Below are positions 18,468-60,410 of a DNA stretch of 64,000 nt, piece after piece. How positions within the stretch are numbered: position 1 is the stretch's first letter; every line of letters begins with the position of its first letter. Both the position numbers and the translations under genes were made by a program. This stretch comes from Nostoc sp. (GTDB lineage: Bacteria; Cyanobacteriota; Cyanobacteriia; Cyanobacteriales; Nostocaceae), in NCBI RefSeq assembly GCF_036917815.1, contig NZ_JBALEK010000098.1, positions 1,915 to 65,914 of the forward strand, given 5' to 3'. The notes under the pieces were generated by a model. The model did no database searches. It was not told the origin of the DNA and saw only the letters and a list, made by a program, of their open reading frames with translations.

Positions 18468-19739
18468 GTGAAAATACCTATGGTTCTGTTAGAAAGGCCA
18501 TTGAGTTGGAACAGTTCTATGGTTCGCTTGACCTACCCATCCTTTCGTCTGTTGCTTTACCTAGAGTGGCTGTTATTAGCCACGGCAATGTTCATGGAAG
18601 TTCTGCTGCCCTTTGAGCTGTCCTGGTCGTTGCTGCTACGAGTTGTCGTGATTGCAACCTTCAGCTTGATGGGCTTGAGACTACCAATGGTTAAGCTGGA
18701 AACCAAATTATTTTATACAGCCCTGGAATTCATTTTAATTTTGCTGCCAGCGACTCAACATGGCTTATCTAGTCGCTCGGTTTTTCTGCTGTGCCTAGTA
18801 CTGGTGATGCGGAGTTGTCTGGTCTTTAAGCAATCGGGACAGTTGGTTGTCTTGGGTTTATCTCTGCTTACTTATGGAACACTGCTTTTGTCAAGACCCA
18901 TTGTACCTGAGAATTTTATGCCAGATAAGCTGATCGCCATGTCCTGGGATTGGCGATTAAGTAATATATTATTGTTTAGCTTAACGTTAGTATTCGCTTT
19001 ATTATTAATTAACGCTTTGCTTGCAGAGCGGCAAAGTCGAGAGCAGTTAGAAATTGCCCATCAGCAATTAGAGATGATCAATCAACAACTGTGTCAGTAC
19101 GCGCTACGGATTGAAGATCAGGCAACTTTGCAGGAACGCAACCGAATTGCCCGCGAAATTCATGACGGGTTGGGACACACTCTCGCCGCCCAAACTATTC
19201 AGATTAATAATACTCTGTTGTTCTGGCAATCAAATAATGACAAAGCATTGACATTTCTCAAACAGGCAAAAGAACAGGGGGCTGAGGCGCTGCTGGAAAT
19301 TCGGCGATCGCTTTCTGTTTTGCGTTCAAATCCTTTGCAAGGGCAATCTCTCAAATCAGCCATTGAAAAACTGTTGACAGATTTTCAGCAAACCACAGGT
19401 ATTGAACCGTCCTGTAAAATTGATGTCCCGTACACTTTACCAACAGAAGTAAACACTGCCCTGTACCGCATTGTGCAAGAATCGCTGACAAATATTTGCA
19501 AACACGCCCAAGCGACGAGTGTCACTGTTGAAATAGTGGCTCACTCTGGGATGATTCATCTGTCAGTGGAAGATAATGGAAAAGGGTTTAACCCCACTCA
19601 AAATACAACTGGGTTTGGGTTACAAGGGATGCGAGAACGGTCGGTTGCACTAGGCGCCCAGTTGAATCTTCATAGTCAACTAGGAACAGGTTGCTGTATT
19701 TCTGTTTCTTTGCCACTCTCAAAGCTGTTGGTGTTTTAG
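18468..19739 (+). CDS. Sensor histidine kinase, HisKA_3 (NarQ/DesK/LiaS-type)
   Basis: About 5 N-terminal TMs, ERNRIAREIHDGLGH H-box, LYRIVQESLTN, DNGKGF, GFGLQGMRER; exact start uncertain. Confidence 0.93.
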   Translation: MKIPMVLLERPLSWNSSMVRLTYPSFRLLLYLEWLLLATAMFMEVLLPFELSWSLLLRVVVIATFSLMGLRLPMVKLETKLFYTALEFILILLPATQHGLSSRSVFLLCLVLVMRSCLVFKQSGQLVVLGLSLLTYGTLLLSRPIVPENFMPDKLIAMSWDWRLSNILLFSLTLVFALLLINALLAERQSREQLEIAHQQLEMINQQLCQYALRIEDQATLQERNRIAREIHDGLGHTLAAQTIQINNTLLFWQSNNDKALTFLKQAKEQGAEALLEIRRSLSVLRSNPLQGQSLKSAIEKLLTDFQQTTGIEPSCKIDVPYTLPTEVNTALYRIVQESLTNICKHAQATSVTVEIVAHSGMIHLSVEDNGKGFNPTQNTTGFGLQGMRERSVALGAQLNLHSQLGTGCCISVSLPLSKLLVF

Positions 19740-19742
19740 CTT

Positions 19743-20390
19743 ATGATTCAGATTTTATTAGTTGACGATCAGCATCTCATTCGCCAGGGACTTAAGAGTA
19801 TGCTGGAGTCGAATGCAGAGATGCAGGTAATCGGTGAGGCGGAGAATGGGCAACGGGCACTCGAACAAATTGCCGCACTACAACCCGATATTGTGCTAAT
19901 GGATATTCGGATGCCCGTAATGGATGGAGTGGCCACAACAAAAGCGATCGCTCAACAATATCCTGACATTAAGGTTCTCGTCCTCACCACCTTCGATGAT
20001 GATGAGTATGTTTTCCAGGCGATGCGGCTGGGTGCAAAGGGCTATTTGCTCAAGGATACCGAACCAGATGAACTAATGTTGGCAATTCGATCTGTCTACA
20101 AGGGACAAACCCTACTCGGCCCAGGATTGTTTGAGAAAGCACTCACGCCTATTGCCGCACCTGTCGCGTCTGTGCAAACTCCTCCAGAATTGGCGCAACT
20201 CACACCCAGAGAATTAGATGTATTACGGTTAATTGCTTGTGGAGCCAATAACCGTGAAATTGCTGAATCGCTGTTTCTTTCAGAAAATACTGTTAAAAAT
20301 TATGTGACAAATATTCTGAGTCGCTTGAGTTTACGCGATCGCACTCAAGCCGCTTTATTTGCCCATTCGTTGTTTGGTGGACTTAAATAA
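19743..20390 (+). CDS. NarL/LuxR-family response regulator
   Basis: REC (LLVDD, D in LMDIRMP, KD) plus LuxR HTH LTPRELDVL..SENTVKNYV; 3 bp after the kinase. Confidence 0.95.
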   Translation: MIQILLVDDQHLIRQGLKSMLESNAEMQVIGEAENGQRALEQIAALQPDIVLMDIRMPVMDGVATTKAIAQQYPDIKVLVLTTFDDDEYVFQAMRLGAKGYLLKDTEPDELMLAIRSVYKGQTLLGPGLFEKALTPIAAPVASVQTPPELAQLTPRELDVLRLIACGANNREIAESLFLSENTVKNYVTNILSRLSLRDRTQAALFAHSLFGGLK

Positions 20391-20598
20391 TTGAAGGAGG
20401 CAGAAGGAGTTTTTCAGTTGGGGATTCGACCCTACTGATTTAGCAGCCCTGAACGAGAGTTCAATGGGGGTCTTAAACCCAAGGTCAGCAATGCTTCGCG
20501 ACTGTTACAGAGTGCAGTTTTTCTCCAACATCCTCGATAAACTAGGTGACATACTCCACACACTCCTAAGAGTGAGTGTGGGCTTCTCAATGACTCTT

Positions 20599-21774
20599 CT
20601 ATGAAGACATTAATTGAGCTTTAAGGGCGTGTGTCCCACGCGCCTTTATATTTATACTTGCATTTAGATCACGACATAAACTGACTTTACAGTTAGGACA
20701 GTCATGAGTTCTTTGAGATAAAGTCTTTTTAACTCTAGTTCCACAGTTAGAACATTCAATACTTGTGCCATTTGGATTTATTGCAACTACTTTCAAACCA
20801 GCGTTTTCGGCTTTGACTGTAAGTATTGAAATAAATTGACTCCAAGCAGCGTCACTAACACTTTTAGCTAGTCTAGACTTAGCAAGACCTTTAATATTTA
20901 ATTTTTCAACAGCTATAACATCATAATTTTTTAGTAAATTATTAGCCGTTTTAAAGTGAAAATCTTTTCTGGTATCGGCAACTTTTTTATGTTGTTTTCC
21001 TAATTTAACAATTGCCTTTTTACGACGATTAGATCCTTTTTTACGTCTAGAAACTTTACGCTGTGCTGATTTTAATCTGCGTTCAGATTTTCGTAAAAAC
21101 TTAGGTGCTTTCACTTTAGATCCGTCTGAAGCAACATAAAAATCAATTAAACCAACATCAATACCAACAATATTATTAGCATTAAAGTCAGGCTTAATTG
21201 TTGGGACTGTTTGATCATCAAGACTTAGAGTGACATAGTAGCCATCAGCTTTTTTGGTGACAGAAACAGTTTTAATCTTAAATCCGTCTGGTATTTGTCG
21301 ATGAACAATTACTTTTACACTACCAATTTTTGAAAGGGTAATTCTGTTGTTAATGAAATGAGCTTGATTAAATTGTGAGTAAGTAAAAGTTTTGTACTGA
21401 CCTTTACCCTTAAAACGTGGTTTACCAGATTTTTTACCGTTAACATCTCCTTTGATCCAACGATCAAAAGTAATTTCAACTTTTTTAGGTATTTCTTGTA
21501 AGACTTGAGAGTGGATATCTTTATACCAGGGTCTATCCTTTTTAAGTTGGACTAAAGAAGCCTTTTGGCTGTAATAATTCGGTTGATTTTTTAATTCTGG
21601 TAGGTGAGAAACGATTAAAGAGCATCGGTCTATTGAACACCTGTTCATTTCATACCAATCAAATCTTTGAGCAAGCTGATAATTATATTGATATCTAAGC
21701 ATTTCAAGCGTATTATCAATCTTTTCAGCCTGTTCTTTATTTGGTTTAATTTTGTACTGGTAAGATGTTTTCAC
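20599..21774 (-). CDS. tnpB: RNA-guided endonuclease TnpB
   Basis: N-terminal HTH, RuvC D (VGIDVG), E (IAVEKL), D (CRDLNA), zinc finger CSNC/CPNC. Confidence 0.95.
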   Translation of the reverse strand: MKTSYQYKIKPNKEQAEKIDNTLEMLRYQYNYQLAQRFDWYEMNRCSIDRCSLIVSHLPELKNQPNYYSQKASLVQLKKDRPWYKDIHSQVLQEIPKKVEITFDRWIKGDVNGKKSGKPRFKGKGQYKTFTYSQFNQAHFINNRITLSKIGSVKVIVHRQIPDGFKIKTVSVTKKADGYYVTLSLDDQTVPTIKPDFNANNIVGIDVGLIDFYVASDGSKVKAPKFLRKSERRLKSAQRKVSRRKKGSNRRKKAIVKLGKQHKKVADTRKDFHFKTANNLLKNYDVIAVEKLNIKGLAKSRLAKSVSDAAWSQFISILTVKAENAGLKVVAINPNGTSIECSNCGTRVKKTLSQRTHDCPNCKVSLCRDLNASINIKARGTHALKAQLMSS

Positions 21775-21839
21775 ATTTTTATTGCTTTTTCGACCTGTAA
21801 ATAGTATAACATGAATGTATAGTCAATGTGTAGATAATT

Positions 21840-21995
21840 ATGAAAAACAAAGCATTAAATTTAAGGATATCTGAAAGGCGTTTAAATAAGTTACGCTTAT
21901 ACTCGGTTCAAAAAGATATGACAATGACAAGGATTTTAGAAGATTTTATAGACTCTTTAAAACTTGAAAATGGTGATTCATCATCGACACCTTAA
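21840..21995 (+). CDS. 51-aa ribbon-helix-helix (CopG-like) protein, absent from the ORF track
   Basis: Translated by hand: MKNKALNLRISERRLNKLRLYSVQKDMTMTRILEDFIDSLKLENGDSSSTP; beta-helix-helix pattern; 65 bp from the tnpB start, inside the IS ends. Confidence 0.75.
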   Translation: MKNKALNLRISERRLNKLRLYSVQKDMTMTRILEDFIDSLKLENGDSSSTP

Positions 21996-22467
21996 CTAAT
22001 TTAAACCTGTGGTTTAAATTAGTTAAGGTATCAATTCTTCATCACCCAAAAATTCATCCCACACTCCCCTTCGGGTGAGATGTGGGGCTTCTTTTCGTTT
22101 GAGCTAAAACCTTTTTACCTCCTGCCTGATCTCGACGACAAATTGCATTCATGCGCTGACGGATATATTGGCGGATTTCGTGTGAGTATACCTATATTCA
22201 TAGGCAGATAGGAATATGCTTTACCGCTCTCATCTCAGCAATTAGATAGTTGAAAAGAGATTTGCCTAAATGTTTTAATGTCATTACAGTTGTTTTCAGG
22301 TAAATAGACCACGCTGTAGAGGCAATTCATGAATTGCCCTAACGACAGATATGGTTTAAATACATCTACATGAAAGAATTTGCAATTAAATCTCAGCCTA
22401 TTCTCAGTAGGCCGACGCGGCAACTTTTGTAAGTTAATAATTTTTAGCTAAGTGGCAATTTCAAATC

Positions 22468-22740
22468 ATGGAAAATACATTAGTTGATAAAACCTTCCGT
22501 GACGGCAATGGCAAAATTGTTTTAGCTCAGATGCCAAACCTACCACTTATTGTTTGGATAGTAGCTAGTTTACTATCTCTAATTTTTACAAGTGGTAAAA
22601 CCAATACGGTTTTAGACTTACTGGCAAATGGCTCCTTGTTTACTTGGGCTTGGCTAGAATTATTTCAAGGTGTTAATTATTTTCGGAGAGCGCTAGGTCT
22701 TGCCGTATTGATTGGTATTATCGCCTCAAAAATTATGTAA
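22468..22740 (+). CDS. Small hypothetical membrane protein (90 aa)
   Basis: ATG start, three hydrophobic segments, protein-like composition. Confidence 0.7.
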   Translation: MENTLVDKTFRDGNGKIVLAQMPNLPLIVWIVASLLSLIFTSGKTNTVLDLLANGSLFTWAWLELFQGVNYFRRALGLAVLIGIIASKIM

Positions 22741-23022
22741 TTATAACAATAAATATGTTCCCGAACACATCATTACTTATGCGAAGTTAAAAATATGACT
22801 AAAGTCATACTGTAATTATGACTTTTTTACACTGTGTCTTTTGATCTAGTATTTTAAACTGAGAGTAATACAGCAAATCAATTAAGTAGGGGCAATACAT
22901 GAATTGCTCCTCCAGTAAATAAGGGTTTCGGCTATTGTTTGCCTAAGTCCTTAATATATGTCCACAAATTGTTGAGAGATGCTGTAGAAAACTTAAGCAA
23001 ATTAATTAATGGAGATTTGAAC

Positions 23023-37499: not shown

Positions 37500-37799
37500 C
37501 TAATCAAACAGACTTAACTGTATGAATTCCTGGTGGGTTGACGCTTCACAGGATGCTGCTACCTTTGCGCGAAAGTGTCCACGGGGATACTCCCCGGTGG
37601 CGCATTTCGCGATAGTCTGACGCTTTCCTCCACGTCCGTTTTGAGTTTCCGAATGTCCTCCGGCAACTTTAATATTAACTGCGGCGTTCACGTCCCTATC
37701 GTGAGTGGATTCGCAATTCAAGCAAATCCATTGACGAATTGAAAGGTCGAGCTTACCACCCCTAAATCCGCAGGATGAACAAGTTTGACTCGTTGGCTT
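37500..37799 (-). pseudogene. tnpB: tnpB C-terminal remnant
   Basis: KPTSQTCSSCG..WICLNC..HDRDVNAAVNI; the upstream part is deleted and the remnant abuts the tnpA ATG. Confidence 0.9.
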
Positions 37800-37802
37800 A
37801 CT

Positions 37803-38186
37803 ATGAATAAAGAATATAGACGTGGCAAACACAGTGTTACATCGCTTAAGTCTCATTTGGTCTTCGTTACCAAGTATCGTAAAAAGATATTTGATGCCCA
37901 ACGACTAGAAGTGCTGATTCAATCATTCTTTGAAGTCGCGAAAAAGATGGATTTTAGTATTCTTGAAGTTAATGGGGAAGGCGACCATGTTCATTTACTG
38001 GTTGAGTATTCTGTGTCTCAACTAGTGAACCACCTCAAGGGCGTATCTTCGAGGATCTACCGTAAACACTTTACAGACTCACCCCACGCCGAACATCTTT
38101 GGAGTCCTTCTTACTTTGCGTGTTCTGTGGGAGGAGCGCCGATTGAAGTGTTGAAGGAGTATATTAAGAATCAAAGCCGCCCGTAG
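37803..38186 (+). CDS. tnpA: IS200/IS605 Y1 (HUH) transposase TnpA, possibly defective
   Basis: HLVFVTKYR, HVH, KGVSSR, LWSPSYF, EYIKNQ; appears to lack ~4 residues (usually PPxx) after LVEY. Confidence 0.88.
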   Translation: MNKEYRRGKHSVTSLKSHLVFVTKYRKKIFDAQRLEVLIQSFFEVAKKMDFSILEVNGEGDHVHLLVEYSVSQLVNHLKGVSSRIYRKHFTDSPHAEHLWSPSYFACSVGGAPIEVLKEYIKNQSRP

Positions 38187-48403: not shown

Positions 48404-48753
48404 GTGACATACTCCACACACTCCTAAGAGTGAGTGTGGGCTTCTCAATGACTCTTCTATGAAGACATTAATTGAGCTTTAAGGGCGTGTGTCCCACGCG
48501 CCTTTATATTTATACTTGCATTTAGATCACGACATAAACTGACTTTACAGTTAGGACAGTCATGAGTTCTTTGAGATAAAGTCTTTTTAACTCTAGTTCC
48601 ACAGTTAGAACATTCAATACTTGTGCCATTTGGATTTATTGCAACTACTTTCAAACCAGCGTTTTCGGCTTTGACTGTAAGTATTGAAATAAATTGACTC
48701 CAAGCAGCGTCACTAACACTTTTAGCTAGTCTTTCTTTTCGTTTGAGCTAAAA
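48404..48753 (-). mobile_element. Internal-deletion derivative of the 20546-22109 tnpB element
   Basis: 48404-48732 matches 20546-20874 (329 bp, no differences seen by eye) and is joined to the last 21 bp of the left end (22089-22109). Confidence 0.92.
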
Positions 48754-60245: not shown

Positions 60246-60410
60246 GTGACATACTCCACACACTCCCCTTCTCTGCGAGACGCTACGCGAACGGGTGAGT
60301 GTGGGCTTCTCAACGACTCATAAAATTAATAAAAATGATATTGAGTTTTTACCTCGTATTCATCCCACACTCCTAAGAGTGAGTGTGGGGCTTCTACTGT
60401 TCAAGCTAAA
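60246..60410 (-). mobile_element. ~165-bp non-autonomous IS605-type miniature related to the 20546 element
   Basis: Starts gtgacatactccacacactcc like the other copies, has both hairpins, ends agctaaa; no ORF. Confidence 0.85.

Follow-up and report, generated by a model that had tools for sequence, protein, structure and literature searches.

A cyanobacterial TnpB element without a transposase gene carries a divergent Arc-like ribbon-helix-helix gene that probably represses the element's own promoters

A 64,000-nucleotide stretch of Nostoc sp. DNA (contig NZ_JBALEK010000098.1, positions 1,915 to 65,914 of the forward strand; hereafter the window) was analyzed for a TnpB element that an earlier note, made from the sequence alone, had placed at 20546–22109. 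Two genes are enclosed by the hairpin ends of this element, tnpB (20599–21774, minus strand) and, divergent from it, a small ribbon-helix-helix (RHH) gene that resembles arc (21840–21995, plus strand). The limits of the element were determined by comparison with another copy in the window and with G114, a sister genome from this genus, in which the target is uninterrupted and reads ...ATAAACTAG|CTAAAACCC.... This empty site shows that the element spans 20546–22103 (1558 bp), and that it was inserted 3′ of TTTTAG without target duplication. The bases CTAAAA at 22104–22109, which read TTTTAG on the tnpB (minus) strand, are target DNA and lie outside the element. Thus, the bounded TnpB element with hairpin ends was correctly recognized in the earlier note, including its start, whereas the last six bases assigned to it belong to the target.

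Terminal inverted repeats were not found at the ends of the element; both ends instead contain a subterminal hairpin. The right end (RE) starts with GTGACATACTCC at 20546, followed by a hairpin at 20557–20584, and on the minus strand its terminus reads ...GAAGCCCACAC-hairpin-GUGUGGAGUAUGUCAC at 20546. The left end (LE; 22047–22103, minus strand), whose boundary was taken from the empty site, contains a hairpin at 22058–22087 and the conserved terminus GGGGCTTCTTTTCGTTTGAG. Both hairpins are followed by GGGCTTCT on the same (plus) strand, and the right end finishes with ...GGAGTATGTCAC. This end design (a hairpin with GGGCTTCT, and a right end in ...GGAGTATGTCAC) was found at dozens of sites in the genome, and the LE design is common to ~20 orthologous loci and to further copies in the genome. 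Hairpin ends, a grammar written on one strand, and insertion without target duplication are hallmarks of the IS200/IS605 family. No tnpA gene is present between the ends, which makes the element non-autonomous; it is an IS200/IS605-family element of the tnpB-only, IS1341-like type. The transposon-adjacent motif (TAM) was deduced from multi-copy genomes. All eight near-identical copies in one genome (G072) abut TTAG, and the three copies in another (G018) abut TTTAG, with otherwise unrelated flanks in both cases, so the TAM is (T)TTAG. In total, TTAG or TTTAG adjoins the LE in 8 + 3 + 2 independent insertions.

The tnpB gene encodes a protein of 391 amino acid residues that matches OrfB_IS605 (E 5e-25), Cas12f1-like_TNB (E 4e-20), and HTH_OrfB_IS605 in Pfam. 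Its residues 5–379 align end to end with ISDra2 TnpB (8bf8, E 4e-46). The RuvC residues D206, E290, and D369 and the CxxC...CxxC zinc finger (C341/C344/C359/C362) are all in place, which bears out the earlier description of this tnpB as catalytically intact. The start codon is GTG, and ATG in the orthologues. A 2-bp frameshift at the tnpB start was considered and rejected, as the difference is a simple ATG-to-GTG substitution.

The right end and the 3′ part of tnpB (20546–20874, minus strand) contain a predicted omegaRNA region. Three stems with compensatory changes are common to 15 related right ends: GGCGCGUG...CACGCC, a second stem formed around the stop codon of tnpB, and the terminal hairpin. 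The terminus GUAYGUCAC is invariant in 15/15 of these right ends and is shared by many other elements of the genome. A scan of 19500–23000 against Rfam gave only chance microRNA-like matches on a long hairpin. The conserved stems, the GUAYGUCAC end, and the retention of this part by an internally deleted copy (see below) fit an omegaRNA, with the flank from 20545 downward as the guide. The predicted scaffold would consist of the last ~100+ nt of tnpB and the 53-nt right end. By analogy with the known layout of TnpB omegaRNAs, the guide is predicted at 20526–20545 (minus strand; the length is nominal). The guide flank differs between the two copies in the window, and its first 9 nt are the same as in the ancestral target of G114. 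A 146-bp repeat resembling a miniature inverted-repeat transposable element (MITE), with copies on other contigs, occupies 20391–20536, so that 9 bp separate it from the right end. As G114 lacks this repeat at its empty site, the present guide consists mostly of MITE DNA.

The RHH gene encodes a protein of 51 residues. The exact sequence is absent from the protein collection that was searched, where the best match is 94% identical, but 109 homologues were found at E < 0.01. Nearly all of these are from heterocystous cyanobacteria, and they are usually 56–68 residues long. R9, R14, L15, K17, T28, T30, D38, and L40 are invariant in the family. A six-frame search located the gene in 60/101 Nostocaceae genomes, where it reaches 37 copies in a single genome. 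When the gene was compared with 18 orthologues, pN was 0.08–0.28 and pS was 0.5–1.0, at or near saturation, and dN/dS was 0.07–0.21 where it could be computed. The RHH open reading frame is a real gene under purifying selection. The AF2 model, which was built with the family alignment (pLDDT 83.8), comprises an extended N-terminal beta-strand segment and two helices (residues 12–25 and 29–39). The RHH core is followed by only ~11 residues, which were modeled with low confidence. A Foldseek search with this model returned a list almost wholly composed of RHH proteins (YiiF, ParG, CopG, Arc, PutA, MazE-mt9, AtaR, NikR), with target-normalized TM scores of 0.6–0.8, and some of the homologues have a precomputed PF19891 match. 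Judged from the model and this list, the 51-residue protein has the RHH fold that had been proposed for it earlier. Genes of this kind, of 50–60 codons, are often overlooked in annotation.

The RHH stop codon is spanned by a long imperfect hairpin (21972–22046) with 36-nt arms that are 83% complementary. An equivalent hairpin lies 3′ of the RHH gene in the orthologues, and it is probably a terminator or an insulator. The conserved codons of the C-terminal tail of the protein (GDSSSTP) form one arm of this hairpin, and the other arm lies just inside the LE. The conservation of this tail may therefore reflect nucleic-acid structure instead of protein function.

The start codons of tnpB and the RHH gene are separated by exactly 65 bp (21775–21839), as noted earlier, and by 65–68 bp in orthologous loci. 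This spacer contains divergent and overlapping predicted promoters. A consensus scan predicted the tnpB promoter on the minus strand, with a −35 box TACACA at 21832–21827 and a −10 box TATACT at 21808–21803. For the RHH gene, the predicted promoter has a conserved −10 box TAGTAT of the TAnnAT type (21802–21807, plus strand), which overlaps TATACT on the minus strand. Both boxes that had been named earlier, TATACT and TATAGT (21818–21823), are present; however, TATAGT is not conserved in the orthologues, and the predicted −10 box of the RHH gene is TAGTAT.

An alignment of 20 spacers, taken from loci with three tnpB clades and from relatives without tnpB, contains only one block of near-invariant non-coding columns, TAaCATnnAnGTA, which corresponds to 21807–21819 in the window. 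This block is the candidate Arc operator TAACATGAATGTA, with the palindromic core ACAT-GA-ATGT at 21809–21818. The inverted repeat described in the earlier note is thus nearly invariant. The candidate operator TAACATnnATGTA overlaps both predicted −10 boxes. A direct repeat, GAATGTATAG / CAATGTGTAG with 12-nt spacing (21813–21822 and 21825–21834), lies 3′ of the operator core. The 13-mer TAACATnnATGTA occurs four times in the 7.4-Mb genome, and three of these occurrences are ~32 nt upstream of RHH start codons. Within the element it is present once, in the promoter region, and no second copy was found at the element ends. In the paralogous C8 family, the operator differs in detail (CCCATAGATATAT).

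The association of the RHH gene with tnpB was assessed in the best locus from each of 29 different Nostocaceae genomes. In 21 of the 29 loci, a divergent tnpB starts 65–68 bp from the RHH start, and in four further loci (L067, L077, L078, L080) a third, more distant tnpB clade occupies the same position. One locus contains a tnpB remnant and three contain no tnpB. The head-to-head pair described in the earlier note is therefore found in 25/29 loci. The partner tnpB genes belong to three clades, with a mutual identity of ~34% or less. The third clade (G021, G033, G091, G067) encodes proteins of ~440 residues that start with MYGCQQNLVNP..., and its elements have a second LE type and a GTTAAA-type target. 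One RHH family and one operator design thus serve three tnpB clades within one bacterial family, and the regulator and its promoter region appear to be a portable module.

The RHH gene had been described earlier as standing in place of tnpA. No tnpA lies between the ends, but replacement is an imprecise description. On contig C48 of the same genome (L092:154–2250; G000:C48:139501–141597), a 415-residue tnpB is divergent from an intact Y1 tnpA; a decayed RHH gene, interrupted by in-frame stops, comes next after tnpA. This three-gene layout (tnpB divergent from tnpA and arc), which is also described in the literature, makes the loss of tnpA with retention of arc more likely than the replacement of tnpA by arc.

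Other copies in the window and in other genomes are relevant to the mobility of the element. An internally deleted sister copy at 48404–48747 (minus strand) consists of 329 bp of the RE, the omegaRNA region, and the 3′ end of tnpB, fused to the final ~15 bp of the LE. Its positions 48404–48732 are 100% identical to 20546–20874. This copy has no LE hairpin, no arc, and lacks most of tnpB, and it is flanked by the TAM CTAAAA at 48748–48753. A protein-less, PATE-like relative of 160 bp (60246–60405, minus strand) contains only the RE and LE of the same family, with the TAM CTAAA at 60406–60410. In other genomes, up to eight near-identical copies of the element are present. Eight Y1 tnpA genes were found elsewhere in the genome of the window, and a TnpA is encoded at C86:14142–14504; one of the eight genes adjoins the closest tnpB paralogue (58% identity), whose RE terminus is identical. 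The genomes with multi-copy elements also contain tnpA elsewhere. Movement of the element in trans, as suggested earlier, is therefore plausible, and the deleted copy, the multi-copy genomes, and the Y1 tnpA genes are consistent with it.

Other RHH paralogues of the genome are not beside tnpB, but in short mobile elements. These tnpB-less elements are 679 bp long on contigs C33 and C57, and ~560–620 bp on C8, C20, C61, C86, and at several contig ends. The six that were delimited (L018–L022, L120) lie at G000:C8:71380–71993, C20:25865–26419, C61:214493–215298, C86:21012–21771, C33:20672–21348, and C57:34127–34805. They start with GTGAAGTACYCC and a hairpin, which is an RE-like terminus, and end with the second LE type (...GGGGAATTCCG...GTTAAA). 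The stretch from the RE to the RHH promoter consists of ~400 non-coding nucleotides. This ~400-nt module was found in 34/101 Nostocaceae genomes (25/68 genera), usually in several copies, and in the 12 genomes examined an intact, diverged RHH gene came directly after it. A tblastn search with 13 TnpB queries detected no tnpB within 1.5 kb of the element at any of 30 loci (0/30).

On the strand antisense to the RHH gene, RNAalifold predicted 83 base pairs for the module, 43 of which are maintained by changes on both sides. Several invariant U-G pairs in this structure would be A-C mismatches on the other strand, and a further figure bearing on the choice of strand was 36 vs 16. The compensatory changes and the invariant U-G pairs indicate that the ~400-nt molecule is most likely an RNA in the polarity of tnpB and the omegaRNA, which would end at the element boundary. 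A covariance/sequence model of the last 130 positions of the module matched the C68-type tnpB elements L066 (E 9e-6), L073 (1e-3), and L085 (2e-3); as this model contains five base pairs, the link between the module and the omegaRNA is mainly a sequence match. Each of these matches spans the whole model and lies on the tnpB strand immediately 3′ of tnpB, and all end with ...GGGUAGUUCAC. No counterpart of the upstream ~270 nt was found, either by a blastn comparison with right ends from tnpB elements of the third clade, which matched nothing beyond the LE, or by nhmmer with a profile of the whole module. The module was also considered as a decayed or tnpB-linked sequence; this was rejected, as tblastn found no tnpB at the 30 loci and the nhmmer profile matched only other copies of the module. 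A group I intron (IStron) or a HEARO/IscB RNA was rejected as well, as the tnpB-less elements gave no match in Rfam. At the 5′ end of the ~400-nt RNA (L120:1501–1921 and relatives, columns 42–75 of alignment A4), a mini-frame of 9–13 codons, MV[VDAN]DPP[TD]R..., is conserved; this conservation may only reflect the RNA stems that it overlaps.

The tnpB element on contig C68 of the same genome (L037:1264–1500; G000:C68:85187–85423) has an LE with 90% identity to the LE of the tnpB-less elements. Its arc is deleted except for the last codons, and an operator-like sequence (CATATTTATGGTA) is found at position −46 of tnpB. The element may therefore be a target of Arc provided in trans.

PATEs are reportedly protein-less derivatives of IS200/IS605 elements that keep the omegaRNA. 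The copies at 48404–48747 and 60246–60405 and the tnpB-less elements resemble them in keeping the ends and the RE/omegaRNA region. In contrast to PATEs, the tnpB-less family keeps arc and carries a longer (~400-nt), conserved, and folded RNA, which offers a long and covariation-supported RNA for study.

Taken together, it is likely that the RHH protein is an Arc-type repressor acting on the promoters of its own element, as judged from conservation and from analogy with published elements. The protein would dimerize and bind TAACATnnATGTA, and probably the adjacent 12-nt-spaced TGTA repeats as well. On the RHH side, the site coincides with the beginning of the predicted transcript; on the tnpB side, it falls within the spacer of the predicted tnpB promoter. 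Owing to this position, binding would repress both the RHH gene itself and tnpB with its omegaRNA. Expression of the nuclease would thereby be kept low and buffered, and the element would be moved by Y1 TnpA from other IS605 copies in the genome.

Several observations weigh against this interpretation. Promoter-like hexamers are no more common in the spacer than in shuffled sequence (7 sites vs 6.3). Because the hexamers alone match the shuffled frequency, the case for the operator rests on its conservation and on the specificity of the 13-mer. An intact arc is present at only one of the ~15 long tnpB genes of the genome. As for the protein, the Foldseek E-values are >0.5 and thus non-significant for such a very small protein. 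No Pfam family of the Arc (PF03869) or CopG type scores above its threshold, the best matches being DUF6364 (17.5 bits with a cut-off of 27.3) and CopG_antitoxin (14.8 bits with a cut-off of 28), and the family profile gave no meaningful match among PDB sequences. The likeness to the published, mostly clostridial Arc clade could also be convergent. Finally, limiting TnpB cannot be the whole selected function of the RHH protein, because both the operator and an intact RHH gene survive in many relatives that lack tnpB. Of the self-regulated cassette proposed earlier, the bounded element without a transposase, the RHH gene under selection, and the palindrome over the −10 boxes are retained; the limitation of TnpB is not the entire role, and the idea is not new.

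Other explanations of the RHH gene were weighed against repression of the element's promoters. That the frame stayed open by chance, the spacer being AT-rich, is exceedingly improbable and was rejected. The frame is indeed very short, scores below the Pfam thresholds, and is not a called protein in the collection searched, but its homologues, invariant core residues, and contrast between pN and pS argue against chance, and dozens of genomes and three types of element contain the frame intact. A role in transposition, perhaps that of an inhibitor or a directionality factor which binds the ends or the complex of TnpA with DNA, would be consistent with the position of the RHH gene, which is always beside the left end and is kept where the element otherwise consists of ends and RNA. 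RHH proteins bind duplex DNA, but the ends of IS200/IS605 elements are recognized in the form of single-stranded hairpins, and the conserved motif occurs once in the element, in the promoter region and at neither end. We therefore regard this role as quite improbable. Alternatively, the RHH protein and TnpB could be a toxin–antitoxin-like pair, with the nuclease neutralized by protein contact. RHH proteins are often antitoxins, and such a reading was published for an archaeal RHH-TnpB clade (PMC10691335). Here, however, the two genes are divergent and form no operon, the D-E-D residues of TnpB are canonical in contrast to the rearranged RuvC-III of the archaeal clade, the ~11 low-confidence residues past the RHH core provide no toxin-binding domain, and the RHH gene persists without any tnpB. 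A pair of this kind is highly improbable at this locus.

The tnpB-less elements bear on a further explanation, which extends promoter repression within the element and does not exclude it. Here, instead of TnpB in cis, the RHH protein would mainly target the guide RNA or the network of elements. Transcription of the RNA with omegaRNA polarity would be under the control of Arc, which, by acting in trans on related promoters, would reach both arc-less tnpB elements and tnpB-less RNA elements. This is favored by the occurrence of the tnpB-less elements in a third of the genomes (34/101) with intact RHH gene, operator, and covarying RNA, by the lack of tnpB within 1.5 kb at the 30 loci, by the similarity of the last 130 nt of this RNA to the omegaRNA region of C68-type elements, and by the C68 element itself, which lost arc and keeps the operator-like site. 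The operators of the paralogues differ in detail, as in the C8 family, and as the main function of the RHH protein we consider this explanation unlikely. The comparison suggests that Arc controls a guide-RNA promoter whether or not this promoter also serves a nuclease gene, and that Arc from one copy may act on others in trans. We tentatively propose, as a possibility that falls somewhat short of being the favored one, that Nostocaceae harbor a widespread nuclease-less family of 'Arc + guide-RNA' elements, whose RNA, if made, would be loaded onto a TnpB from elsewhere; such elements would be guide-only parasites of TnpB elements that regulate themselves, in a trans-acting Arc network that also reaches arc-less tnpB copies. 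The tnpB-less elements suggest that Arc is selected for control of the guide-RNA promoter or for action in trans, beyond limiting the neighboring nuclease. Alternatively, the additional ~270 nt of the RNA may have a function of their own.

Repression by Arc within the element, the interpretation preferred here, agrees with work on other bacteria. Zedaveinyte et al. (bioRxiv 10.1101/2023.11.20.567912) were the first to note Arc-like RHH open reading frames, which they found beside TnpB, homing endonucleases, and Cas12k. With ChIP-seq, reporters, and mutants, Arc was found to bind a two-way promoter and to repress tnpB, in a set that includes elements with only arc and tnpB; autoregulation of Arc was proposed in the same study, which does not mention cyanobacteria (Moon, Zedaveinyte, Wiegand & Sternberg, bioRxiv 10.64898/2026.09.24.754181). 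The element in the window resembles these IS605 transposons in its small RHH gene divergent from tnpB, its short two-way promoter, its palindromic site over the promoter boxes, and the proposed autoregulation. It differs from them in its cyanobacterial (Nostocaceae) host, the likeness being one of architecture, and in that its RHH family serves three tnpB clades and tnpB-less RNA elements. The arrangement of arc and tnpB has thus already been described and tested in other bacteria, and what is new here is the cyanobacterial example. The Arc brake on TnpB transposons, described only recently, thereby gains a case with well-defined boundaries, for which a TAM (TTTAG) and a guide are predicted and which offers an operator of one site as well as natural variants.

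Compared with ISDra2 TnpB (8bf8, 8exa, 8h1j), the TnpB described here aligns over its full length and has the same catalytic triad and zinc finger; the predicted guide scaffold likewise overlaps the 3′ end of tnpB and the right end, and insertion occurs 3′ of a short TAM without duplication. Unlike ISDra2, the element has no tnpA, has the TAM TTTAG/TTAG instead of TTGAT, and carries an additional regulator gene. The archaeal RHH/MazE-TnpB loci also encode an RHH protein beside TnpB, but they are co-directional and immobile, with a rearranged RuvC-III (D to H), and were read as toxin–antitoxin pairs (Altae-Tran et al. 2023, PMC10691335), whereas D369 is canonical, the genes are divergent, and the element is mobile in the present case. 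A small repressor set against a TnpB-derived effector within a mobile element is also found in the cyanobacterial Cas12k Tn7-like transposon; there, the effector is Cas12k within a Tn7-like transposon, and the likeness is one of layout.

The window contains one more remnant of the IS605 type, at 37500–38186. In this remnant, an intact Y1 tnpA for a protein of 133 residues (37785–38186) is divergent from a truncated tnpB (37500–37901), which retains only the portion with the zinc finger and RuvC-III.

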